A DNA stretch of 64,000 nucleotides from Candidatus Sericytochromatia bacterium (GCA_035285865.1 JAYKHS010000007.1:45240-109239), one strand, 5' to 3'; positions 71 through 64,000 are shown, counted from the first letter of the stretch. Numbers and translations are program-made. The notes: a model not told the origin generated them from the sequence alone.

Positions 71-1981
71 ATGGACCTCACGGAAGTCCTGGTGGTCGTC
101 TTCGCCTCGGCCATCGCCGGCCGGCTGGTCGACTTTTCTGCCGTCTGGTTCCTGTTCCACCCCTATCGCAAGGTCAACCTGCCCCTGATCCGGGAGCTGG
201 GTGTCCTGCCGAGACGTCAGGAAGCCCTCGCCGACCAGGTCGCCCTGCTCATCGAAGAGCGTCTGATCACCCGGGAACGCATCTCGGCCTATCTGGAATC
301 CGGCGAAATCGCGACCAAGGTCCAGGGCTCCGTGCGTGCCATCCTGCACGACGTCCTGACCACGCCTCATCCTTCGGTGCGGGACATGCTGCAGCGGCAC
401 CTGGGCGAGGCCGTCGACGTCGATGCCGAGATTGCCATGCTCTCGGAACGTGCAGCCGAAGCCCTCGCCGGGTTGCTCGCCCGACCGGGCTTCCGTGCGC
501 GCCTGACCAACCTCGCGGAGGACCTGCTGCGTCAGTGGGGACCGCGGACGCTCGACGAGTCCTTGCCTCCCGACCTTGCCGACCGCATCATCCACCATCT
601 CTCGGGTCGGTTCGTGGAGTGGACCGACAACGCGGACGGCGAGGCCAGGCGCCTCGACGCGTGGCTTGCCTCACTGGGCCCATTGCCGGATCTGGTCCCC
701 CAGGAGACGCTGGACCTGATCCAGGAGCGCCTGAAGGATCGCCTGCCGGACCTTGCCCGCATCCTCGAGGACGTCCTGCAGGAGCCTCGGGTCAAGGCGT
801 TCCTGAGAACCTATCTGGTCGAGGTCGTCGACCGGCTGGTGGCCACCAGCCCGAATCTGTTTTCCGTCGAGGGTCTGCTCGGCGCGTGGAGGCAGCTTTT
901 CCCCGAGGACTTCGCCAAGCGCCTCGACCAATTCGTCGACGACACCCTGCCCCGGCTGCGCAAGGCCCTCGAGAATCCGGACACGCTGGCCTTCGTGCGT
1001 GCCCGCATCGACCGGGCCTTCGCGGAGGCGCGCGTGACGCCGGTAGGCGCTTGGTACGGCCGTCTCGGCGATCGTGGCCGCGCAGAACTGGTCACGGCGG
1101 TGGCCACCCTGCTGCGCAGTCCCATAGCCCTCGCCGTGGCCACGGAGCTTGCCAGACTCGGTGTCCAGCGTCTGCTGGCCACGCCCATCGAACGCTTCCT
1201 GCCGGCGTCATGGCGCGAGGCTGACCCCGTCGGCCGCCGTCTGGCCGAGTTGGAAGAAGTCCCGATCGAGGACTGGCCGGAGGTGCTTCTGCCCCGCCTT
1301 CAGGAACTGCTCACCGGGCAGGAGTTGACGGACGGGTTGCTGGCGGCGGCCACCAACGGAGATGGGCGAAGCCTCGCTGCCTGGCTGCGTGCCCACGTGC
1401 CCGAGGAGACCGATGCAGGGCGCGAGTGCGCTGCCTATGCCGCCGCCCTCGAAACCGGCACGAACCGACCCGAGGGGCATGCGACCCCCCTTCGCGTGGC
1501 GGTGGATCGCGCGTGTGCGATGGCTGCGGAGCCCGCGGCCCAGGCCACCCTCAGGCGCTGGGTGGCCCGGGGCATCGAGGCCCTGGCGGGCCTGCCCGTG
1601 GGTCGGCCCGCGGACTGGCTCGACGAAGCGCGGGCCGAGCGTCTGGAATCCCTGCTGGTGACCCAGGTGCAGGGCCTCCTCCGCAGCCAGGCCCACCGGG
1701 TGGCAGAAACCCTGGACTTCAAGGACATGGTGCGGGCCGGCATCATGCGCGCTGAACCTGCGGCCATCGAGGACGTCGTCAAGCGTCGCCTCGCCCGTCG
1801 GGAGTTCAACACGATCTTCCTCATCGGCCTGATCTTCGGCGGTGGCGTGGGGTTGGCCGCGACGCTGCTCTTCAGGCAGGTCGCCGTCTGGTCCGTCTCG
1901 CTCGGCTGGAGCGGTGCGGCAGGTGTGGCGGCAGCAGGCGTGGGCATGGTGCTTGTGATGCTGAGGTTCGTCCGGGTATGA
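71..1981 (+). CDS. DUF445 (YheB-like) family membrane protein
   Basis: N-terminal TM followed by WFLFHPY...GVLPRRQEALA, long helical middle, C-terminal 'I..IGLIFGGGVGL' TM; typical DUF445 layout. Confidence 0.75.
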   Translation: MDLTEVLVVVFASAIAGRLVDFSAVWFLFHPYRKVNLPLIRELGVLPRRQEALADQVALLIEERLITRERISAYLESGEIATKVQGSVRAILHDVLTTPHPSVRDMLQRHLGEAVDVDAEIAMLSERAAEALAGLLARPGFRARLTNLAEDLLRQWGPRTLDESLPPDLADRIIHHLSGRFVEWTDNADGEARRLDAWLASLGPLPDLVPQETLDLIQERLKDRLPDLARILEDVLQEPRVKAFLRTYLVEVVDRLVATSPNLFSVEGLLGAWRQLFPEDFAKRLDQFVDDTLPRLRKALENPDTLAFVRARIDRAFAEARVTPVGAWYGRLGDRGRAELVTAVATLLRSPIALAVATELARLGVQRLLATPIERFLPASWREADPVGRRLAELEEVPIEDWPEVLLPRLQELLTGQELTDGLLAAATNGDGRSLAAWLRAHVPEETDAGRECAAYAAALETGTNRPEGHATPLRVAVDRACAMAAEPAAQATLRRWVARGIEALAGLPVGRPADWLDEARAERLESLLVTQVQGLLRSQAHRVAETLDFKDMVRAGIMRAEPAAIEDVVKRRLARREFNTIFLIGLIFGGGVGLAATLLFRQVAVWSVSLGWSGAAGVAAAGVGMVLVMLRFVRV

Positions 1982-2619
1982 ACGCGACCGTCCGTCGGAT
2001 CGCGACCCTGCTGCTTGCCGTCCTGGTCCCACTCGGTCCGGTCGCGGGTCCCGCTGGGGCCGCGGGCGTCGTCACGATCGAGGATGCGGAAGGTCGCTTG
2101 CTGTGGGGCAAGGGCGTCGAGGGGCATACTCCTTGGTCCGAACGCAGCGTCTGGGTCGAGGGGGAGTGGATCTGGAGCGCCGCCCCCATCGATGCTCCGG
2201 ACCCGCAGCAGCTCCGCTTCGCGTTGCCAAAACTACAGGACAACATCTTGAAACTTAGCGACCTGTTTTTATATCAACAAATGAAGTCAGGCAACAAAGA
2301 TACAATGGTCAAGGAGCAGGAGGCCCTGCGCCTGAGGCTCCGGCGTCACTTCGACGAAGGGGCTGTGCGTGCGGTCCGCTACGCCGGCGGCCCCGGCGCG
2401 TGGCAAGTCCAGGTCGCCTACGAGCTCCCGGCCTTCGAATCGGCGATTGGCTTCCGCGCGTTCTCCGAGGCCCCGCGCCCGGTGGAACCGACCCAGCTCG
2501 AGAAGGTCGTGGCGGGAGAGCGCTGGTGGAACAGGGCGTGGGACATGGCGTGGCTGGCCACGATGGGCCTGGCCGTCACGGTGGCGGTCCTGCTTGTGGA
2601 CGCCACCACGCGGCGCTGA
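1978..2619 (+). CDS. hypothetical exported protein with C-terminal membrane anchor
   Basis: ATGA overlap with upstream gene, signal-peptide-like N-terminus, hydrophobic C-terminal helix. Confidence 0.6.
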   Translation: MNATVRRIATLLLAVLVPLGPVAGPAGAAGVVTIEDAEGRLLWGKGVEGHTPWSERSVWVEGEWIWSAAPIDAPDPQQLRFALPKLQDNILKLSDLFLYQQMKSGNKDTMVKEQEALRLRLRRHFDEGAVRAVRYAGGPGAWQVQVAYELPAFESAIGFRAFSEAPRPVEPTQLEKVVAGERWWNRAWDMAWLATMGLAVTVAVLLVDATTRR

Positions 2620-2627
2620 TACCCGGA

Positions 2628-3719
2628 TCAGGGTGCAGGTGCCGGCTGGAAGGTCCCGTCCAGGATCTGCGCGCGCCAGCGTTCGACACGACGCTGCAGA
2701 TGCCGCAGGTTGTGGATGGACAGCAGCGTGTGGGCCAGCCACTCTCCGGCGCGGACAAGGTGATGCAGGTAGCGACGGTCGAACCTGGCACACGTCATGC
2801 AGTCGCAATCCGAGTCGATGGGCAAGGCATCCTCCGCGAACCGCGCGGCCTTGATGTGGAAGCGGCTCTCTCCGGACCAGACCGTACCGTGCCGCGCCAT
2901 CCGCGTGGGATGCACGCAATCGGCCATGTCGATGCCGTGGGTGATGGCGAGATGAAGATCCTCGGGCGTGCCGATGCCCATCAGGTACCGTGGTTTGGTC
3001 GCCGGGAGCAACGGGGTCGTGACGGCAAGCGTCGCCGCCATGTCGGCCCGGGACTCTCCGACCGAGAGCCCACCCACGGCATATCCGGGAAAATCCATCG
3101 GCACGAGTGCCTCGGCCGACCGACGCCGCTCGGCGGGATCGATGCCGCCCTGCACGATGCCGAAGAGCGCCTGATCCGGACGATCGTGGACGGCAAGGCA
3201 GCGCTCGGCCCACCGCGTCGTTCGATCGACGGCGCGGCGAACCTCGGCCGGATGGGCCGGTAGCCGGATACACTCGTCGAAAGCCATCGCGATGTCCGCT
3301 CCGAGATCCATCTGGATCCGCATCGAGGTTTCGGGGTCCATGAACCATCGCGAGCCGTCGATGGGGCTGCGGAAGCGGACGCCCTCGTCGCTGATCGAGC
3401 GCAGCGCCGCCAGAGAGAAGACCTGAAAGCCGCCGGAGTCCGTCAGCATCGCCCGGGGCCAGCGCATGAAAGCATGCAGACCGCCGGCCCGCGCGACGCG
3501 CTCGGAACCCGGACGCAGCATGCAGTGGAAGGCGTTGGCAAGGACGATGCCCGCTCCGGTATCGGCCACCTGCTCCGGCAGCAGGGTCTTGACCGTCGCC
3601 TGGGTGCCCACGGGCATGAAGGTGGGCGTCGGAATGTCCCCGTGGGGAGTATGCAGGATGCCCGCACGCGCCGACCCGACCTGGGCCAGCACCGTCATGC
3701 GGACGGGTGGCTGAGTCAT
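2628..3719 (-). CDS. tgt: tRNA-guanine(34) transglycosylase
   Basis: TPTFMPVGT, TDSGGFQVFSL, DEC, GIVQGG, GGLSVGE, RYLMG, Zn site CDCMTC...HN. Confidence 0.97.
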   Translation of the reverse strand: MTQPPVRMTVLAQVGSARAGILHTPHGDIPTPTFMPVGTQATVKTLLPEQVADTGAGIVLANAFHCMLRPGSERVARAGGLHAFMRWPRAMLTDSGGFQVFSLAALRSISDEGVRFRSPIDGSRWFMDPETSMRIQMDLGADIAMAFDECIRLPAHPAEVRRAVDRTTRWAERCLAVHDRPDQALFGIVQGGIDPAERRRSAEALVPMDFPGYAVGGLSVGESRADMAATLAVTTPLLPATKPRYLMGIGTPEDLHLAITHGIDMADCVHPTRMARHGTVWSGESRFHIKAARFAEDALPIDSDCDCMTCARFDRRYLHHLVRAGEWLAHTLLSIHNLRHLQRRVERWRAQILDGTFQPAPAP

Positions 3720-23387: not shown

Positions 23388-23996
23388 ATGAATAAGTTTC
23401 GTGCGGTGGTGATGGCGGTTGCCCTCGGCAGCGTGGCCGCCTGTGGCCAGGTCTCCCCCGTGGCTCAGGGACAGGCCGTCACGGTCCTGTCGGCCCGCTC
23501 GGCGGCGACCGAAGCGCGGCTCCTCGATGCCGCAGGCAAGGGTCAGACCGAGTCTGTCCGCGCCCTGCTTGATCAGGGTGCGCGGGTCGATGCCCAGAAC
23601 GGCAATGGCTACACGGCCCTCGCCCTCTCGGCTTGGCGCGGCCATCAGTCGACCGTCGCCCTGCTGCTGTCCCGCGGTGCGCAGGTCAACCTCGCGACCG
23701 AGGACCGCAAGACGCCGATCCACTGGGCGGCCGTGGCCGGCCATGCGGGCATCGTCCGGGATCTCGCCGCGGCAGGCGCCCTCGTCGACAACCGTGACAA
23801 GGATGGCTGGACCCCCCTCGCGTGGGCCTCGTTCAATGGCAAGGTGGAAGTCGTGCGGGTCCTTATCGCTGCGGGAGCAGACGTCAATGCCCGCAACGAC
23901 CGCGGCACGACGGTGCTCGAGCTGGCGCGCAACGGCGGCTTCCTGCTGCCCAACTTCGAGTTGCTGCGCATCCTCCGCGAGGCCGGCGCACGCTAA
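23388..23996 (+). CDS. ankyrin-repeat lipoprotein
   Basis: Lipobox VAAC; repeats GYTALALSA..G, KTPIHWAA..G, GWTPLAWA..G, GADVN. Confidence 0.92.
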   Translation: MNKFRAVVMAVALGSVAACGQVSPVAQGQAVTVLSARSAATEARLLDAAGKGQTESVRALLDQGARVDAQNGNGYTALALSAWRGHQSTVALLLSRGAQVNLATEDRKTPIHWAAVAGHAGIVRDLAAAGALVDNRDKDGWTPLAWASFNGKVEVVRVLIAAGADVNARNDRGTTVLELARNGGFLLPNFELLRILREAGAR

Positions 23997-57359: not shown

Positions 57360-59444
57360 TCAGGGATAGCCCTCGGGCACCAACCGCGCCAGATGCCCGC
57401 CCACCTGCTCGAGGCGCGCCGAGGCCTCTTCGGCCGAAAGCCCCAGCAACCCCATCGCGGCCGCCAGGCGGACCTTACCCCCGGCCGCATCCAGCAGGCG
57501 TTCCGCTTCGGGCATGCCCTTCATCACGATCTCGTCGATGATGCGGATGGCACGGTCGCGCAATTTGCGGTTCGAGACGTTCACATCGACCATCAGGTTG
57601 CCCCATGTCTTGCCCGTGAGCACCATGATGCCGGTGGATAGGGTCCCCAACACGACCTTGGTCGCCGTGCCGGCCTTCAGGCGGGTGCTGCCCGTCAGCA
57701 ATTCGGGGCCCGTGACGATCTCGATCAGGTGGTCGACCGGGGGCTTGCCCTCCGGCCATCGGCCCTCCTGCGGCACGCACGTGACGAGCGCCGTCAGCGC
57801 TCCTTGGGCACGGGCGTGGGCGAGACCGGCACGGACATAGGCAGCCCCCCCTGAAGCCGACAGGCCGACCACGATGTCGTCCGGCCCGACGCCTGCTCCC
57901 TGCAGATCGGCCACGCCAAGTTCCCCACGGTCCTCGGCCCCTTCGACGGCACGCGTGAGCGCCGACGGACCACCGGCCATGAAGCCGAGGACGCGCTCGG
58001 GAGCCGTCGAGAACGTCGGCGGACATTCCGCCGCATCCAGCACGCCCAGTCGTCCCGAGGTACCGGCCCCGAGGTAGATCAGCCGGCCCCCGCGCCCGAA
58101 CCGCTCGGCCGCATCGGCCAGCAGGCTCGCCAAAGGCGCCCGGGCACTGCGGACGGCAGCCGTGACGCTGTCTTCCTCGGCCGCGAAGTGCTCGACGATG
58201 TCCCCGGCGGAGGCTCTGTCGAGGTAAAGCGTGCCCGGATGACGGCGCTCGGTCGGCGGCAGGTGGGGATCCAGCCTCACCCACGGCATCTCGACCAGCA
58301 AGCGCTGATAGTTGGCGCCCGGGGCAATCGTCCCGAGGATGGTGGCGCGACGGGCGCCCGTAGCCTCCGGAGCATGGTTGAGGCGACCGAGGACGGCTTC
58401 GTAGGCAAACAACGCAAAGGCCACAGCTTCGCGGGCCGCCGCCTCGGGCAACTTCTCGAGCACGAGGCCATGCTCGGCGATGAGGGCCTTCAGGCGACGC
58501 ATCAGCGTCCTGTTGCGCACGCCACCGCCGGCAACCCTGACCCGCGAGGGCCGGAACGACCGATTCGGGGGCTGCTCCATCCACTGCACCAGCCCCCGGA
58601 CGACCGTCCGGGCCGTCAGTTCGGTCGCCGTGGCCAGCACGTCCTCGACCGACAGCTCCAGTTGCATGGCCCGCTCCAGAAGACGCGCGACATAGGGCTG
58701 GCCAAACGCTTCGCGTCCCGTCGACTTGGGTGGAAGCTGCCCGAAGTAGGGGTTGTCCAGCAGCGCCCCGAGCAACACCGGATGCACCTGGCCACGGGCC
58801 GCCACCGCTCCGTCCCTGTCGCAAGGCAGGTTCAGCAGTTCCTGAGCCAGGCCGTCGAGGACCATGTTGGCCGGACCGGTATCGAAGCCCGCGGCCGGCC
58901 CCTGCCGCGGAAGCAGCGTGAGGTTCGCGATGCCGCCCAGATTGAGCAGCACCTCGTCGGCCTCTTCCGAGCCGTACAGGATCTGGTCCGAGTGGGGGAC
59001 CAGCGGTGCCCCCTGACCGCCCAGCGCCAGATCGGCCACGCGAAAGTCCCCGACGGTCGTCAGCCCGGTCAAGGCCGCGATTCGCGATGGCGATCCGAGC
59101 TGCACCGAGGCCACGCCCGGCAGATGCAGCACGGTCTGGCCGTGGCTGCCCACGAGCTGGATCGTCTCATCGGGCGTCTTGCGCCACGGCAAGGGCACAT
59201 CCGCGACGGCGGTGGCAAAGGCATCGGCCACCTCCACCTCGAGGCGCGCGACCTCCTCGAGGGGCGTACCGGGGCCCACTGCCCGGATGCGCGCGCCCAG
59301 TCCCTCCGGGTAGCGGACGGTCATGTGACCTTCGACGCGATGCCGGATGCGTCCCCCCGCCGTCCAGAAGACCACCTGCGCCACGTCGATCCCGTCGGCC
59401 GACGTGCCGGACATCAACCCGAGGACCCGCATCCTGTAAGCCAT
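57360..59444 (-). CDS. anmK-murQ: fused anhydro-N-acetylmuramic acid kinase / MurNAc-6-P etherase
   Basis: GLMSGTSADG, GSHGQT, GGQGAPL, NLGGIAN, FDTGPAN, KSTGRE; then TE, GAGTSGRLG.LDAAEC..TF, EGAED, GPE..TGSTRLKAGTA, GNLMVDV..SN.KL. Confidence 0.93.
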   Translation of the reverse strand: MAYRMRVLGLMSGTSADGIDVAQVVFWTAGGRIRHRVEGHMTVRYPEGLGARIRAVGPGTPLEEVARLEVEVADAFATAVADVPLPWRKTPDETIQLVGSHGQTVLHLPGVASVQLGSPSRIAALTGLTTVGDFRVADLALGGQGAPLVPHSDQILYGSEEADEVLLNLGGIANLTLLPRQGPAAGFDTGPANMVLDGLAQELLNLPCDRDGAVAARGQVHPVLLGALLDNPYFGQLPPKSTGREAFGQPYVARLLERAMQLELSVEDVLATATELTARTVVRGLVQWMEQPPNRSFRPSRVRVAGGGVRNRTLMRRLKALIAEHGLVLEKLPEAAAREAVAFALFAYEAVLGRLNHAPEATGARRATILGTIAPGANYQRLLVEMPWVRLDPHLPPTERRHPGTLYLDRASAGDIVEHFAAEEDSVTAAVRSARAPLASLLADAAERFGRGGRLIYLGAGTSGRLGVLDAAECPPTFSTAPERVLGFMAGGPSALTRAVEGAEDRGELGVADLQGAGVGPDDIVVGLSASGGAAYVRAGLAHARAQGALTALVTCVPQEGRWPEGKPPVDHLIEIVTGPELLTGSTRLKAGTATKVVLGTLSTGIMVLTGKTWGNLMVDVNVSNRKLRDRAIRIIDEIVMKGMPEAERLLDAAGGKVRLAAAMGLLGLSAEEASARLEQVGGHLARLVPEGYP

Positions 59445-59557
59445 GGCCCTAGCATAACCTTTTCTTATCCTCCGCCTGCCGATTTCATGGCAAACTGAAA
59501 ATGGCTCGCACCTGACCGCATCATCGCCGCCCGTTGCCGGGCCAACCCCTTTTTGCG

Positions 59558-61366
59558 ATGAGCACGCTGCGTACCTTCGACCTCGAACTGAGGCCCCTCG
59601 ATCGGGCCCAGCGCGAAGGCCTGCGCCGAATCCGCACTCAGGTCGAGTCCTGGTCGGCCCTCTGGAACGAAGCCCTCGCCCCGCTCGGCTGGGTGGATCT
59701 GGCCCAGTCCGTTCGGGATGAAGGCCTCGCCCGAGCCCGCACGATGCTCGACAGCGCCCGCGCGGGTGTCGAAGCCCTGCCCGAGCCTTTCCGCGGCACG
59801 CTCCTGGGCGCCCTCAGGACCCAGTACCGGGCGCTCACGGCCGGTGTCGCGGCCACCCGGGGCGAAGCCTGGACCTGGGCCGTATTCGCACCGGGCACGT
59901 GGACGCTCGTGCCTGCCGGGGATGACACCCTGCGCCTGCACCTGCCGCTGCTGGGCCGGGATCTGCCTGTCCACGCCCGCCTGCCCCAGGGCCTGGACAC
60001 CGAGACGTTCCGGCGCCAGACGGAGGGTGCCCGCTGGCTCGAGGCGCGCATCGGCCGCAGGCAGGGCCGCTGGGTGCTGCGCATCCGTTGCCGCCTCGCT
60101 GTCCGCACGCCCGTGGGCGTGGATCTCGGCATGCGCCACCGGGCGGTTGTGGCCGATGCCGACGGCCGACTCCTGCTCGATGCAACCGGTCGCCGTGAAC
60201 GCGGCAAGGTTGCCCGGATGGAGCGCGTGATGGCCTCGATGCAGCGCAAGGGCGCCCATCGGGCCGCACGACGCCTCGCCGCCCGGCGTGACCGCTATCA
60301 GGCCAACTGCGACCTCGCGGTGGCCGGGGCGGTGGTTCGCGCCGCCAGCAAGGTCGCAACGCCGGTCCTGCATCTCGAGAACGAGGCCACCTTCGCGACC
60401 TTGCCCGACGCCATGCGTCGCCGTCTGGTCCGCACCAGCCGGGCCATTCGCCGCAGCGCCAGCCGCGCCGGCGTGCCCGTCCGCTTGCTGGACGGTCGCC
60501 AGTCCACCCATCGCTGCGAAGCGTGCGGGACCCACGTCCCCGCTTCGTCTGCCCCCCTCGTGTCCTGCCGGTGCGGTTCGCGCCCGCGGGATCTGCAAGC
60601 GTCGCGCAACCTTGCGCGTCTCGCGTCGGCACGGGTTCGCCCGTCCGGCGAAGCTCCCCGACCGGATTCGGGGAGACAGGCCGTCGGCACGGCTGCATCC
60701 CCGCCTCCTGCCCGTTACAAGGGCGTGCAGGAGCGCGCGGGAAGGGGCACGCAAGTCCCCCATGCCTGGATGAACAACATCCCGTCCCTTGGTGCGCCCG
60801 CAAGGCGCCAGAAGGAGAAACCCCTCATGACGACCATCGTCAAGGATCTCGGCGAGACCACCCAGAAGCTCGTCGTCCACTCGCTCGACAACCTCAAGAC
60901 CTATGTCGAGAAGACCTCCCAGGAACTGGGCGGCGTCAACCTCGTTGGCGCGACCCGGAACGTCCTCGACACCGCGATTGACGGCGCCAAGAACGTCGTC
61001 AAGGCGGCCGAGACCCTCTCGGACGATCCCTTCACGGCCATCAAGGTCGTGGCCGATCGCTCCGTCGAGGCCACCCGGGAAGTCCTCAACACCATCGCCG
61101 AGGAAGGCCGCAAGGCCGATCTCGTCGGGGTGTCGAGCCGCATCGCGATGGAAGGGCTCAACACCCTTCGCTCCGAAGTGGATTACGGCCTCGAGACGGG
61201 CAAGGCGCTCGTGAACCGGCTTCAGGCCTCGGCCACGCCGACCCAGCCGGTCGTGACGCGTCCGCCTCAGGTGACCCGTGTCGAGATCGAACACGAGAAG
61301 CCCGCGAGGAGCAGCGCCAAGAGCACCGAGAAGGCCGCCGCGGCTGAAAAGCCCGCCAACGCCTGA
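59558..61366 (+). CDS. tnpB: TnpB/Cas12f-like RNA-guided nuclease domain in frame with a C-terminal amphipathic helical domain
   Basis: RuvC-I GVDLG (D at 60122), bridge-helix-like Arg-rich segment, RuvC-II LHLEN (E at 60377), STHRCEAC..CRC Zn finger, RuvC-III RDLQASRNL (D at 60590); no stop until 61366. Confidence 0.8.
   Translation: MSTLRTFDLELRPLDRAQREGLRRIRTQVESWSALWNEALAPLGWVDLAQSVRDEGLARARTMLDSARAGVEALPEPFRGTLLGALRTQYRALTAGVAATRGEAWTWAVFAPGTWTLVPAGDDTLRLHLPLLGRDLPVHARLPQGLDTETFRRQTEGARWLEARIGRRQGRWVLRIRCRLAVRTPVGVDLGMRHRAVVADADGRLLLDATGRRERGKVARMERVMASMQRKGAHRAARRLAARRDRYQANCDLAVAGAVVRAASKVATPVLHLENEATFATLPDAMRRRLVRTSRAIRRSASRAGVPVRLLDGRQSTHRCEACGTHVPASSAPLVSCRCGSRPRDLQASRNLARLASARVRPSGEAPRPDSGRQAVGTAASPPPARYKGVQERAGRGTQVPHAWMNNIPSLGAPARRQKEKPLMTTIVKDLGETTQKLVVHSLDNLKTYVEKTSQELGGVNLVGATRNVLDTAIDGAKNVVKAAETLSDDPFTAIKVVADRSVEATREVLNTIAEEGRKADLVGVSSRIAMEGLNTLRSEVDYGLETGKALVNRLQASATPTQPVVTRPPQVTRVEIEHEKPARSSAKSTEKAAAAEKPANA
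60603..60810 (+). ncRNA. putative structured RNA (omega-RNA-like scaffold / 5' leader) overlapping the tnpB 3' end
   Basis: Consecutive hairpins: acggg-UUCG-cccgt (60631-44), ctccccga/tcggggag (60654-75), gccgt/acggc (60680-93), ctcctgc/gcaggag (60705-33), gggg.ac-GCAA-gtcccc (60744-60), ggatg/catcc (60768-82), gcgcc/ggcgc (60794-808). Confidence 0.5.
60827..61366 (+). CDS. independently initiated 179-aa amphipathic helical (phasin-like) protein with Ala/Lys tail
   Basis: AAGGAG at 60812-17 before ATG 60827; abrupt change to AAG/ATC/AAC/ACC-rich codons; internal duplication (..ELGGVNLVG.. / ..EEGRKADLVG..). Confidence 0.75.
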   Translation: MTTIVKDLGETTQKLVVHSLDNLKTYVEKTSQELGGVNLVGATRNVLDTAIDGAKNVVKAAETLSDDPFTAIKVVADRSVEATREVLNTIAEEGRKADLVGVSSRIAMEGLNTLRSEVDYGLETGKALVNRLQASATPTQPVVTRPPQVTRVEIEHEKPARSSAKSTEKAAAAEKPANA

Positions 61367-61379
61367 TCGACGGCTGCAG

Positions 61380-61411
61380 CCGCCGGGTCCGGACCAGTCC
61401 GGGCCCGGCGG
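61380..61411. terminator. terminator between the tnpB fusion and tmk
   Basis: ccgccgggtccggac/gtccgggcccggcgg stem followed by ccttttg. Confidence 0.7.
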
Positions 61412-61425
61412 TCCGCCTTTTGAGG

Positions 61426-62079
61426 TCAGGCGAGGTCGGCGAGCGCCACCCCTGCCGCTACGAGAACCGCATCCGGATCGGCGGTGCCATCAACCCGAAC
61501 AATGCGTGCGCCATGTTCACGTGCAAGCACGGCAAAGCCTTCGCGCACCCGCTCGTGGAAAGCCACCCCGGCACCCTCGAGCCGGTCCGGACCACGCGAG
61601 GCGGCGGCGCGGCGCAGACCTTCCGCAACAGGCACATCCAGCCAGAGGGTGCGATCCGGCACGAGCCCGGCCGTTGCCCACGCATTGACCTGCTCGACCA
61701 TGGCGCGGTCGAGCCCTCGACCGAAGGCCTGGTAAGCCACCAGCGAATCGACGTGGCGATCGCAGAGCACCCACGCACCCCGCGCCAGAGCCGGACGAAC
61801 CACCTCGGCCAGATGCTGGGCACGGTCTGCGCCATACAGCAACAACTCAGCCAACGGGTCCACATCGTGCCCCGGTGCCAGCAACAACTGGCGAATCGCA
61901 CCCCCAAGACCCGTTCCTCCGGGCTCGCGGGTGACGACGACCTCCCTGCCCTCGCTGCCCAGCATCTCGGCAAGCGCGCGGATGAGCGTCGTCTTGCCCG
62001 CGCCCTCCCCGCCCTCGAAGGTCACGAAACGGCCCTTGCCGCTCCGAGGCAACGGGGATAGCCGGTCCACGCCGCTCAA
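61426..62079 (-). CDS. tmk: thymidylate kinase
   Basis: FVTFEGGEGAGKTT, TREPGGT, ADRAQH, CDRH.DS.VAYQ, PD.T.WLDV, DRLE. Confidence 0.96.
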   Translation of the reverse strand: MSGVDRLSPLPRSGKGRFVTFEGGEGAGKTTLIRALAEMLGSEGREVVVTREPGGTGLGGAIRQLLLAPGHDVDPLAELLLYGADRAQHLAEVVRPALARGAWVLCDRHVDSLVAYQAFGRGLDRAMVEQVNAWATAGLVPDRTLWLDVPVAEGLRRAAASRGPDRLEGAGVAFHERVREGFAVLAREHGARIVRVDGTADPDAVLVAAGVALADLA

Positions 62080-64000
62080 GGGACCGCTCCCGGAAGACGT
62101 GGGCGCAAGGGCGCTTCAGACGGCGACCAGACGGGCATCGGCAGCACCTGGGGCGACGACGACGCAGGCGACGACGCAGGCGACGACGCAGGCGACGACG
62201 CAGGCGACGACGCAGGCGACGGCGCTTCCGTGGCCCCTTCCGAAACACTGCTTTCCCGCGCGCCTGGCAACACGACGGGTTCCGCATCCTGGAAGGGATC
62301 CCAGGTGGGACCAGGTGACGGCAGACCCGGTGGGGGGCTGGCCTCGGGGAAGTTCCGCACGGGCAGGCCGGAGTGCCAGTCCTTCATGACCTTGCGCCAG
62401 ATGCGGGCGGCCACCCTCCCCCCGAAGGCCCCGTCCTTCATCGGTGCGCGATCGTCGTTGCCGACCCACACGGCCAGGCTGACCTGCGGCGTGAATCCTG
62501 CGAACCAGGCATCGCGGAACGCACTGGTCGTCCCCGTCTTGCCCGCGGCCGGCCGACCGATGCCCTGGCCCTTGGCCGTGCCGCGCTCGAGGACGCCGGA
62601 GAGCACCGAGACCAGGCGGGAAACGGCATGGGGCGGGGCTACCTCGGCCCGACGGGGTGCCGGACGCTCGTCGAGGCCGCCGCCCACGACCCGCACATGC
62701 AGCTGTGGCTGGACCCACTGGCCCTTGTTGGCGAACGCCGCGTAGGCGGCCGCGAGCTCGATGGGGTTGGTGGCTCCCGAGCCCAGTGCAAGCGTCAGGT
62801 CCCGGGGATGCGGTCCCCGCATGCCGGCCGCCTTGAGGATGGCCTCGACCGGCTGGCGCCCTACCTCGGCATAGGTCCGGACCGCCACCGTGTTGACCGA
62901 CTGCTCCAACGCGGCGCGAAGCGTCAGCGCACCATAGATGCGCCCGTCGTCGTTGCGCGGCTGGTACCAGCGCCCGTTGCCGGCCGGGTAGCGCGCCGCC
63001 GCGTCCACCACCACGTCCTCCGGCGTCCGGCCGGAGGCGAAGGCCGCAAGGTAGACGAACGGCTTCATGCAACTGCCCGGCTGCAGGTTCGCCATCGTCC
63101 GGTCGTAGTCCGTCGCCCCGACGCCACCCACAAGGGCCAGCACGTGGCCCGTGCCGGGTTCGACGGCCGCCATGGCCACCTGTCTGAAGCCCATCCGGGC
63201 ACCATCCGTCCGCACGGCCTCCTCGGCCGCGGCCACCGCCAACTCCTGCAACCGGGCATCCAGCGTCGTCTGGACCACAAGCCCGCCCTCCTGCACGCGC
63301 GCCGGCCCGAGACGCGCCTCGAGCACGCTCTGCAGGCGACGGCGGAACCAGCCGTGGTCATCCCGGGGCGAACGCTTGATGCCAAGGTGCCGACGCAGAC
63401 CGTGTCCATCGATCTCTCCGGCACGCCAACGGGCCACCTGTCGGGTGCGTGCCTCGCGAACCAAACGATCCGCCTTGAGATGACCGGCATTCACCATGCG
63501 GCCAAGCACGAAACGCTGGCGATCGATGAGTCGGTCGAGTCCATCGTCCGAGAAGGGATCGTATTGTGACGGTCCCTTGAGCATGGCGACAAGCACGGCC
63601 CCTTGGCCGGGATCCAGTCGGCTCGCCGGCTTGCCGAAGTAGACCTCCGCCGCTGCGGCAACGCCGTACGCACCCCGCCCCCACCAGACCTCGTTCAAGT
63701 AGCGTTCCAGAATCTGGTCCTTGGTCATGCCACGCGTGAGCTGGACCGTGACCATGGCCTCGCGCAACTTGCGGTCCAGGGTCTTGCGTCGGTCCTGGAT
63801 CAGCGTCTTGGCCAACTGTTGCGTCAGCGTCGACCCGCCCTCCCGAGCCTCTCCCGCGAGCAGGTTCTTGAACATCGCCCTTGCGAGGCCCTTGGGATCG
63901 AAACCGACATTGCCGTAGAAGCCGGGATCCTCGGTATCGATCAAGGCCTGCCGCAGGGACTCCGGCACGTCGGCCAGAGCCACGGCGTGCTGATGGCGTT
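62076..64000 (-). CDS. class A penicillin-binding protein (transglycosylase/transpeptidase), 5' end outside the window
   Basis: TED..FY..GFD, GGSTLTQQLAK, RKLRE, KDQILERYLN, QPGSCMKP, SVN, GKTGT. Confidence 0.93.
   Translation of the reverse strand, partial: RHQHAVALADVPESLRQALIDTEDPGFYGNVGFDPKGLARAMFKNLLAGEAREGGSTLTQQLAKTLIQDRRKTLDRKLREAMVTVQLTRGMTKDQILERYLNEVWWGRGAYGVAAAAEVYFGKPASRLDPGQGAVLVAMLKGPSQYDPFSDDGLDRLIDRQRFVLGRMVNAGHLKADRLVREARTRQVARWRAGEIDGHGLRRHLGIKRSPRDDHGWFRRRLQSVLEARLGPARVQEGGLVVQTTLDARLQELAVAAAEEAVRTDGARMGFRQVAMAAVEPGTGHVLALVGGVGATDYDRTMANLQPGSCMKPFVYLAAFASGRTPEDVVVDAAARYPAGNGRWYQPRNDDGRIYGALTLRAALEQSVNTVAVRTYAEVGRQPVEAILKAAGMRGPHPRDLTLALGSGATNPIELAAAYAAFANKGQWVQPQLHVRVVGGGLDERPAPRRAEVAPPHAVSRLVSVLSGVLERGTAKGQGIGRPAAGKTGTTSAFRDAWFAGFTPQVSLAVWVGNDDRAPMKDGAFGGRVAARIWRKVMKDWHSGLPVRNFPEASPPPGLPSPGPTWDPFQDAEPVVLPGARESSVSEGATEAPSPASSPASSPASSPASSPASSSPQVLPMPVWSPSEAPLRPRLPGAVP
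62158..62221. repeat. 12-bp perfect tandem repeat (about 5 copies) encoding (ASSP)n in the PBP tail
   Basis: caggcgacgacg repeated at 62165, 62177, 62189, 62201 plus partial copies. Confidence 0.9.

Follow-up and report, generated by a model that had tools for sequence, protein, structure and literature searches.

A TnpB/Cas12f-like protein joined in frame, through a structured RNA, to a core host gene in Sericytochromatia

To our knowledge, the exaptations of TnpB described so far (Cas12 effectors, Cas12k, TldR, dCas12f-sigma and Fanzor) keep the protein and its guide RNA as separate products and act on DNA. The omega-RNA of ISDra2 contains a pseudoknot, and protein-binding mRNA leaders, such as ribosomal-protein leaders, control translation. 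Here we describe a locus of Candidatus Sericytochromatia bacterium (GCA_035285865.1) in which a TnpB/Cas12f-like protein shares one open reading frame (ORF; 59558-61366, + strand) with a 179-amino-acid (aa) host protein, called X below. The locus lies in a stretch of 64,000 nt (JAYKHS010000007.1:45240-109239), which we call the window and on which all positions are based; the genome that holds it, G000, comprises 2.82 Mb in 32 contigs and is 82.7% complete. Between the two protein halves lies a conserved structured RNA that is also translated. Very probably, TnpB and its RNA were domesticated in ancient times, and that RNA now joins the protein in one frame to a core host gene. We also lean toward a further reading, in which the scaffold of the domesticated TnpB became both linker and X leader and the TnpB part controls the processing or translation of X.

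Among the described systems, the IS200/IS605 TnpBs (ISDra2, AmaTnpB and the mobile family A7) have the same fold and motifs as this locus, and its RNA resembles theirs in place, in size and in a pseudoknot before a variable 3′ segment. In the mobile cyanobacterial A7 copies L065-L068, the protein likewise continues over the RNA for 56-74 aa beyond RuvC-III, and where the fused clade has GGCCG-TCGGCA-CGGCT these copies show a covarying hairpin whose loop reads CTTGGCA. They close with a hairpin and then GGGAGTGTCAA, a terminus that we take to be a typical IS605-type right end. Unlike such elements, the locus described here is non-mobile, single copy and without tnpA, and in the genus of G000 it has no GGGAGTGTCAA-type right end. 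It is syntenic and vertically inherited, its tnpB stop codon has been lost so that the ORF reads the whole scaffold into the host gene, and the 3′ continuation of its RNA is mRNA rather than a trimmed guide.

As far as the accessible text of the two preprints goes, TldR proteins (Wiegand et al., 10.1101/2023.11.30.569447; Xiao et al., 2026 preprint) are also domesticated TnpBs beside a host gene thought to be tuned by TnpB, and they have lost D/E/D and the C-terminal ZnF/RuvC step by step, as is seen here in two genomes, one of the same genus (G002) and one of a related family (G008). They differ in that most members here keep the triad intact, the protein is fused to its neighbour, no target in trans was found, and the RNA, which serves as leader of the neighbouring gene, is contained in the ORF. 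The accessible part of the former preprint (10.1101/2023.11.30.569447) makes no mention of cyanobacteria and mentions fusions only as engineered dCas9 fusions. Cas12f supplies the closest solved structures (AsCas12f and OsCas12f, with dCas12f at rank 15), and dCas12f-sigma, in the available part of its description (PMC12259090; PDB 9n9c/9n9m), is likewise a Cas12f/TnpB relative repurposed for gene regulation; in contrast, the present locus has neither a CRISPR array nor a sigma-factor partner, its partner being a fused helical protein of no known family. By analogy, the logic proposed here would match that of ribosomal-protein leaders, in which a structured pseudoknot leader opposed to sequestration of the Shine-Dalgarno (SD) sequence is bound by a protein of the same operon, except that here a one-time RNA-guided nuclease would do the binding, and the leader would once have been its guide scaffold and is also translated within that protein. 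Among papers listed by title and the start of the abstract, with the supplementary tables on TldR outside that scope, none reports a TnpB naturally fused to a host gene, and our literature search returned no paper on TnpB in Sericytochromatia.

An ancient fusion of a TnpB-like half and X

The protein-coding features of the locus are as follows.

59558..61366, + strand: fused ORF of 602 codons from the ATG at 59558 (ORF list), comprising the TnpB-like half, the RNA-encoded linker and X
59558..60628, + strand: TnpB/Cas12f-like domain, residues 1-357, with WED/REC, RuvC and Zn-ribbon (PDB profile, AlphaFold2 [AF2] and Foldseek)
60122..60124, + strand: RuvC-I aspartate D189 (GVDLG), kept in 13/14 aligned sequences, Ala in G002
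60377..60379, + strand: RuvC-II glutamate E274 (LHLE), kept in 13/14, Ala in G002
60515..60574, + strand: Zn-ribbon cysteines C320, C323, C337 and C339 (CEACG...CRCG), kept in 13/14, deleted in G002
60590..60592, + strand: RuvC-III aspartate D345 (RDLQASRNLA; HADLNAARNI in other genera), kept in 13/14, Val in G002
60812..60829, + strand: SD sequence AAGGAG (60812-60817) and X ATG (60827-60829), with an invariant GGAG core
60827..61366, + strand: X, an acidic helical protein of 179 aa (ORF; residues 424-602 of the fusion) with the conserved tail PQVTRVEIEHEK (motif VTRVEIE)

An earlier note on this DNA, made from its sequence alone, had described the ORF, the triad positions, a Zn finger and the gene spacings, as well as a frame that runs on through ~65 codons into a 179-aa gene with its own strong ribosome-binding site (RBS). 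All of this was confirmed from the window sequence (X ATG at 60827, AAGGAG at 60812-60817). The reading frame (59534/59558..61366, +) is open throughout, with 602 aa counted from the ATG at 59558, and a DNA contig from an independent study spans the whole locus without a stop or indel inside the ORF, which answers the concern that a stop might be missing from the assembly.

The identification of the N-terminal half as TnpB-like, with RuvC acids and a Zn finger, is borne out by profile, hidden Markov model and structure checks. The D-E-D triad occurs in the order RuvC-I, II, III, with the motifs aligned in the profile match to PDB Cas12f, and the Zn-ribbon between RuvC-II and RuvC-III is matched by Pfam Cas12f1-like_TNB (residues 295-352, E 6.9e-5). 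Single-sequence scores lie under the curated cut-offs (Cas12f1-like_TNB, 23.4 versus 26.3 bits; OrfB_IS605, 17.5 versus 30.5; guided_TnpB of NCBIfam, 36 versus 100); the sequence of the G000 genus is divergent, whereas the family profile is highly significant against solved members. With a 15-sequence profile of the TnpB half, the PDB returned Cas12f and TnpB chains at E values from 3.4e-25 (Cas12f 9nzq) to 1.5e-17 (TnpB 9nzp). The AF2 model of this half has a predicted local distance difference test score (pLDDT) of 71 and is confident to about residue 356, and Foldseek matched it with probability 1.00 to AsCas12f, OsCas12f, the TnpBs of ISFba1 and ISDra2, and dCas12f.

The RuvC triad that the earlier note had read in the window is intact there and in 13/14 aligned sequences, so the inactivated triad that marks TldR is not seen in these, but the triad is not universal. 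In G002, D189A, E274A and D345V are accompanied by loss of the Zn finger, with the frame still open and a ratio of nonsynonymous to synonymous substitution rates (dN/dS) of 0.23-0.26. The f2 genome G008 holds only a truncated remnant, without RuvC-I, finger and RuvC-III and yet in frame with X; a public fragment (P0015) indicates that f2-like lineages with an intact C-terminal half exist. (Family f1 is that of G000, and f2, f3 and f4 are related families.) Across 13 pairwise comparisons, dN/dS of the TnpB half is 0.12-0.37. That of X is 0.07-0.24, with dS lower too, except for an uninformative value of 0.69 in the near-identical pair G023/G013 (dS 0.007).

We searched 40 genomes of relatives, 41 with G000. 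X was found in 27/41 (f1, 7/7; f2, 1/1; f3, 10/10; f4, 8/8) and in 0/14 genomes from the class's remaining families, and within the order it belongs to the core genes. A GGAG core stands 7-9 nt before the X ATG in 16/16 loci examined, and since X has its own SD and ATG in all of them, both a fusion and free X from the one locus, as the earlier note had envisaged, are plausible. The AF2 model of X shows four long helices and a disordered tail with VTRVEIE, at low confidence (pLDDT 47). Its only homologues were four unnamed proteins; a comparison with PDB sequences gave nothing below E 0.01, Pfam gave nothing consistent on 18 family members, and a homodimer prediction scored 0.00, which, made without controls, carries no weight either way. 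The nearest Atlas clusters are hypothetical proteins at 0.93. The description of X as phasin-like in the earlier note did not hold up: PF09361 (Phasin_2) matched 1/18 family members at E 0.04, a phasin-containing Atlas cluster scored 0.89, and there is no PDB relative, so that phasin is only a lead.

Strong single matches to the TnpB half were found in three other species of the G000 genus (66-81% identity), in three further f1 genomes (6/7 f1 genomes in all) and in 10/10 f3 genomes (31-37% identity). Wherever a genome of f1 or f3 has both halves, they share one open frame of 524-692 codons from stop to stop, so the in-frame fusion is conserved in relatives. Gene-caller proteins of this architecture in public data measure 532-613 aa, and 1.84 billion representative proteins contain only ~7 clusters of it (532-613 aa plus fragments), beyond which scores fall to ordinary TnpBs of 350-410 aa. 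The 13 related public fused loci (L040-L052) come from metagenome-assembled genomes (MAGs) of Sericytochromatia or 'Candidatus Tanganyikabacteria'. By tblastn, anmK-murQ lies divergently upstream in 13/13 of these and in 0/9 X-only or degenerate loci (L031-L039), and tmk with a penicillin-binding protein (PBP) gene lies downstream in f1 only (4/13 fused loci, some contigs being short). In f4, X stands alone in another context, with an RlmL-type methyltransferase and no anmK. A metagenome scan for the nearest unfused relative, P0014, gave no confirmed locus.

G000, at its 82.7% completeness, has one copy each of the TnpB half, X and the linker RNA, no Y1 transposase (PF01797) and no second TnpB of the nearest mobile family, A7. 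By comparison, that sister family (proteins of 350-410 aa) is multi-copy in 55/301 sampled Cyanobacteriota genomes. The marks of a mobile element (multiple copies, tnpA, recognisable ends) are thus missing, and the place beside anmK-murQ is fixed in 13/13 loci. A single-copy anmK-murQ/tnpB-X locus with its frame is conserved in related genomes, which answers a check proposed in the earlier note, with the tmk side restricted to f1. Taken together, the single copy, the lack of tnpA, the synteny, the dN/dS of 0.12-0.37 and the 31-37% identity across families identify this as a domesticated TnpB.

One X-only locus has an unusual frame. In L038 (G012, f4; oriented 1923-3548), X-like sequence ends a stop-to-stop frame of 541 codons. 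Upstream of the X-like part, this frame resembles non-coding DNA without similarity to TnpB, and it is probably an open GC-rich frame rather than a second kind of fusion.

The linker as a structured RNA

The earlier note had suggested that TnpB might regulate X through an RNA separating the two halves, and the presence of such an RNA proved right: a covarying structured RNA fills the linker. Its elements, and those that follow it up to the SD sequence, are listed here.

60620..60794, + strand: conserved structured RNA (omega-RNA-type scaffold) of ~175 nt, also translated as linker residues ~355-412 (covariance model, 136.5 bits)
60624..60650, + strand: hairpin A1 (per-sequence folds, 15/15; helix 1, double changes in 7/11 pairs)
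60653..60676, + strand: hairpin A2 (compensatory changes in 9/9 pairs; 94.8% of cells paired)
60678..60694, + strand: invariant segment AGGCCG-TCGGCA-CGGCT, which may form a small hairpin (no change in 15/15, third codon positions included)
60699..60741, + strand: long hairpin B, whose loop holds CAAGGG (60718-60723), the pseudoknot 5′ strand (folds, 15/15; double changes in 15/16 pairs)
60744..60761, + strand: hairpin C (helix 5, 100% paired; 2/3 pairs covary)
60786..60791, + strand: CCCTTG, the pseudoknot 3′ strand, in f1 also complementary to the SD region (helix 4, 96.7% paired)
60792..60811, + strand: variable spacer at the omega-RNA guide position, in the G000 genus a small hairpin GCGCC-CGCAA-GGCGC (alignment)

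Between RuvC-III and the X ATG, the DNA is conserved at all codon positions in the blocks AGGCCG.CGGCACGGCT, AAGG, AAG, CATG.C and CCTT. Folded one by one, all sequences form the same four hairpins, and RNAalifold showed compensatory changes in 23/36 pairs. In the named 45-pair structure, double changes occur in 34/45 pairs, with 79.6% of cells paired; shuffled controls averaged 62.8% (0/500 reached the observed value) and slid controls had at most 47.9% paired, in a test that somewhat favours this structure, as it was derived from the same sequences. CAAGGG in the loop of hairpin B can pair with the invariant CCCTTG ~65 nt downstream, with one compensatory change from G-C to A-U in G005. With a covariance model, each of the 13 fused public loci scored 114-159 bits and the degenerate G008 locus 50 bits; the model gave no match near X in the eight X-only loci of f4.

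The substitution pattern tells of constraint on the nucleotides as well. In pairs within the G000 genus (g1), linker dS is 0.05-0.25 versus 0.5-1.1 for tnpB, and linker omega is 0.6-2.4. The contrast is weaker or absent in three f3 pairs (G011/G009, linker dS 0.127 versus 0.245 and omega 0.19; G019/G025, omega 0.19; G017/G015, omega 0.45). Within the genus, the share of amino-acid-identical codons that have a silent change is 0.5-1.0 up to residue 360 (0.88 at residues 346-360), then 0.45 at 361-375, 0.18 at 376-390, 0.00 at 391-435 and 0.07 at 436-450. The first ~25 X codons (60827-60905, +) are nearly without silent change (0.00-0.07 in four species of the genus), and thus the nucleotide constraint of the leader seems to reach into the start of X.

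The same stretch is kept as a reading frame. From the D345 codon to the X ATG, the distance is 228, 237, 240, 252, 258 or 264 nt by genus, each length and each difference being a multiple of 3. Depending on the genus, the segment from GAAG to CATGCC that holds hairpin C measures 20, 26, 29 or 41 nt, with differences that are again multiples of 3; in G000 it has 26 nt (60741-60766). In 15/15 relatives, frame 0 of the linker is free of stops, compared with stops in 13/15 and 12/15 in frames +1 and +2. The peptide itself (residues 357-423) is predicted to be disordered, with a pLDDT of ~30. Since indels come in threes and frame 0 alone is free of stops, together with the constraint on the RNA, the stretch is evidently selected both as RNA and as in-frame linker. 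The conserved open frame of the linker is more than chance.

Like an omega-RNA, the element starts inside the 3′ end of tnpB after RuvC-III, spans ~175 nt, is hairpin-rich and has its pseudoknot just 5′ of a variable segment. Its position and size are consistent with the range and processing of omega-RNA in the available part of a published study (PMC10278001). Descent of the linker RNA from an omega-RNA thus appears to be a well-founded proposal. An Rfam scan of 59300-61500 gave chance-level matches only. In L077, a match at E~1 overlaps the 3′ end of the gene, and we do not count it as evidence of a shared RNA.

Three further sequences bear on the RNA and its surroundings. In L007 and L012 (G011 and G009), CCCTTG is followed by GTGTCAAC, identical in its letters to the GGGAGTGTCAA right-end terminus of the mobile copies L065-L068, and this may be a vestige of a transposon end. 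A Sericytochromatia MAG (L052, 2697-2798, -) holds a second, miniature copy of the RNA at 25 bits, just past the end of anmK-murQ, in which hairpin A2, CAGGCCGCCGGCA and CCCCTTGCAG are present and hairpins B and C are absent. In the window, 23529-23631 (+) matched the RNA model weakly (15.3 bits, E 0.01), probably by chance, because the whole-genome search at E <= 1 did not return it.

Transcripts, a proposed switch and its rivals

RNA-library contigs from three studies (60630-61333, 60648-61338 and 60632-61217) each bridge scaffold and X, which places the RNA and X on one transcript contig. The three start within 18 nt of one another at the 5′ edge of the RNA element, two of them directly preceded by adapter letters, and the DNA contig runs on; the shared starts are a weak hint at an RNA 5′ end. 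The tnpB body (59558-60620) has no RNA-contig cover in the three runs, and this uncovered part carries no weight either way. Silent sites at residues 346-360 vary freely (0.88) and so give no sign of a conserved promoter at that place, a result slightly in favour of processing.

Folding of the isolated 3′ segment suggests how the leader could act on X. In most of 16 distinct sequences, a pyrimidine tract pairs with the X SD, clearly so in g1, G006, G005, G011/G009, the G019 group and the G023 group. In f1, the pseudoknot strand itself serves as the tract (CCTTGC with GCAAGG-AGG; in the G000 genus, CCTT with AAGG). In f3, CCTCCA(A/T) takes this role; it lies two bases upstream of the pseudoknot strand and pairs with (T/A)TGGAGG, and between CCTCCAA:TTGGAGG (G017) and CCTCCAT:ATGGAGG (G019) the flanking pair changes from A-T to T-A. 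Formation of the pseudoknot and sequestration of the SD would then compete. The SD lies 14-30 nt past CCCTTG, about one guide length.

We propose that in a common ancestor of several Sericytochromatia families an IS200/IS605-type TnpB (Cas12f-like) element landed upstream of the core gene X, and that the element then would have lost mobility and been inherited vertically since. Its 3′ omega-RNA-type scaffold would have been kept and the tnpB stop codon lost, so that the scaffold DNA became both a disordered in-frame linker and the structured 5′ leader of X mRNA. Free X would then arise from the internal SD and ATG on a leader-X RNA, and the TnpB-linker-X fusion from ribosomes that start at the tnpB ATG. 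The TnpB moiety may still bind its cognate scaffold, now on the X message; binding would stabilise the CAAGGG:CCCTTG pseudoknot, which otherwise competes with pairing of the pyrimidine tract and the SD, and occupancy by the protein would set translation of X mRNA and perhaps its 5′ processing and stability. The fused X domain could tie this control to X assemblies. Where RuvC is kept, its likeliest use would be 5′ processing of the leader, with DNA cleavage less likely: in the available part of one study, RuvC-dependent 5′ processing of tnpB mRNA yields omega-RNA and 3′ flanks are uncut (PMC10278001). Lineages without the triad keep both frame and RNA. In its boldest form, which we put forward only tentatively, the former nuclease would have become an mRNA-bound regulator whose 'guide' is replaced by the X RBS and coding sequence, which binds and perhaps cuts the leader and which is covalently joined to the protein it regulates.

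Several observations weigh against this proposal. Neither true ends nor strand or abundance can be read from the contigs, and DNA may be present in RNA libraries. Pairing of the pyrimidine tract with the SD is not in the minimum-energy folds of G004 (L009) and G017 (L010), and the anti-SD partner differs between families; SD-complementary pyrimidine tracts arise easily. The losses in G002 and G008 indicate that catalysis is dispensable in some lineages; conversely, if RNA binding alone were selected, the kept D-E-D and Zn finger (13/14) would need an extra assumption of processing. In the G000 genus, the tnpB ATG has no SD (other genera show GGAG-like sites), so that the fusion may be made at a very low level. 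With default filters, the covariance model found nothing significant in 22 mobile-type tnpB loci, and with filters off in 11 loci all matches had E > 0.2; only position, architecture and one similar hairpin loop link the element to real omega-RNAs. As X belongs to no named family, a biological point in regulating it is not evident.

An unlikely alternative is that the protein binds or cleaves DNA under RNA guidance, as TldR, dCas12f or an active nuclease would, with the scaffold and the next 14-30 nt as guide and a site elsewhere or in its own locus, where X would be autoregulated. The keeping of triad and Zn finger in 13/14 aligned sequences at 31-37% identity, the match of fold and profile to RNA-guided nucleases and dCas12f, and an RNA in omega-RNA position with its pseudoknot just 5′ of a guide-length variable segment all agree with it; in G002 and G008, triad and Zn finger have decayed in the manner described for TldR in the accessible text on that system (10.1101/2023.11.30.569447), and the own locus is always a perfect match to the segment. 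Against this, targeting elsewhere, as the earlier note's RNA-guided reading implied, found no support, because the candidate guide has no second genomic match. When all 11-14-mers of 60793-60840 were compared with G000, only a palindromic 14-15-mer recurred (C4, C20 and C28), without a common flank. Post-scaffold patterns of 16-20 nt in two registers matched nothing but the locus itself at 0 mismatches in nine relatives, some of them 81-91% complete, in a search whose scope did not include short seed-only targets. Such self-only matches came from G009, G011, G013, G019, G021, G023 and G025, and the scans of G026 and G015/G017 test little, with another genus's pattern or no self match; the few matches at three mismatches were common to no sister genomes. 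A guide complementary to a host promoter elsewhere, as in TldR, was thus not seen beyond chance-level matches in G000 and the nine relatives. Moreover, the RNA-library contigs pass unbroken from scaffold into X, and RNA-guided action on DNA offers no reason for the kept frame into X.

It is improbable that only the RNA leader and X matter and that the TnpB half is a decaying relic, rarely or never translated, with a frame open by chance or for a trivial cause such as ribosome traffic that prevents termination. G002, which lost triad and Zn finger, and the truncated G008 do keep the RNA core and X, the tnpB start in the G000 genus has no SD, and within the genus the TnpB half evolves faster than X (66-81% versus 92-96% identity). 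However, a relic would hardly show dN/dS of 0.12-0.37 in 13 comparisons, G002 included (0.23-0.26), nor ~350-450 codons free of stops and frameshifts in 15 genomes spanning 31-37% identity; the catalytic and Zn residues are nearly invariant, linker indels are all multiples of 3, and frame 0 alone is stop-free. We give practically no credence to a recent insertion of IS1341/IS605 type with accidental read-through, or to an assembly error that removed a stop, for which the TnpB homology itself speaks and nothing more. The locus is single copy, without tnpA and without another member of the family in G000, public MAG loci (13) and GTDB genomes (15) of at least two families share the same fused and syntenic locus, and the independent DNA run has no stop or indel in the ORF. 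The signs by which the earlier note would have recognised such an event are likewise missing: no relative has a stop after RuvC-III, those relatives in which X stands alone (f4) show other neighbouring genes instead of an empty site, and near-identical copies do not exist. A recent insertion or assembly error is thereby refuted.

Neighbouring genes and significance

The locus is flanked by the following features.

57360..59444, - strand: anmK-murQ fusion gene, the divergent and conserved upstream neighbour (Pfam AnmK and SIS domain in relatives; tblastn)
59445..59557, no strand assigned: divergent intergenic region of 113 bp between anmK-murQ and the fused ORF, with presumed promoters (ORF list)
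61426..62079, - strand: tmk, the convergent neighbour on the downstream side, restricted to family f1 (Thymidylate_kin of Pfam in L041 and L044; tblastn)

The fused ORF thus begins 113 bp from the start of anmK-murQ (59444), and 59 bp separate the X stop from the end of the tmk ORF (61426). In 59445..59557, a scan recognised 0 sites of sigma-70 consensus; a terminator scan likewise gave 0, and such scans are uninformative for this GC-rich lineage. The upstream neighbour (57360-59444, -) is itself a fusion, with AnmK (anhydro-MurNAc kinase) and an SIS-domain MurQ-like etherase in one protein of 694 aa, and the AnmK/MurQ-like protein has the same fused form beside the TnpB-X gene in 13/13 related loci. 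Beyond tmk, at 62076-62200 (-), the C-terminal end of a PBP1-type ORF is a run of SPASS repeats (PSPASSPASSPASSPASSPASSS) from a tandem 15-nt repeat.

The locus differs from known TnpB exaptations in three respects: a TnpB-type protein is joined covalently to a host protein, naturally and since ancient times, ~175 nt of it are selected both as folded RNA and as open reading frame, and an omega-RNA-type scaffold heads a host mRNA. On a conservative reading, it is a clean and datable transposon domestication in a little-studied basal cyanobacterial lineage of non-photosynthetic relatives, and it flags X, a core gene of the order without a known family, as worth study. If the proposed control of X is true, the locus would be a built-in feedback or tethering circuit conserved since before several Sericytochromatia families split, and it would add the control of a message in cis to an OMEGA/Cas12 repertoire of DNA targeting, as a compact natural RNA-protein switch.

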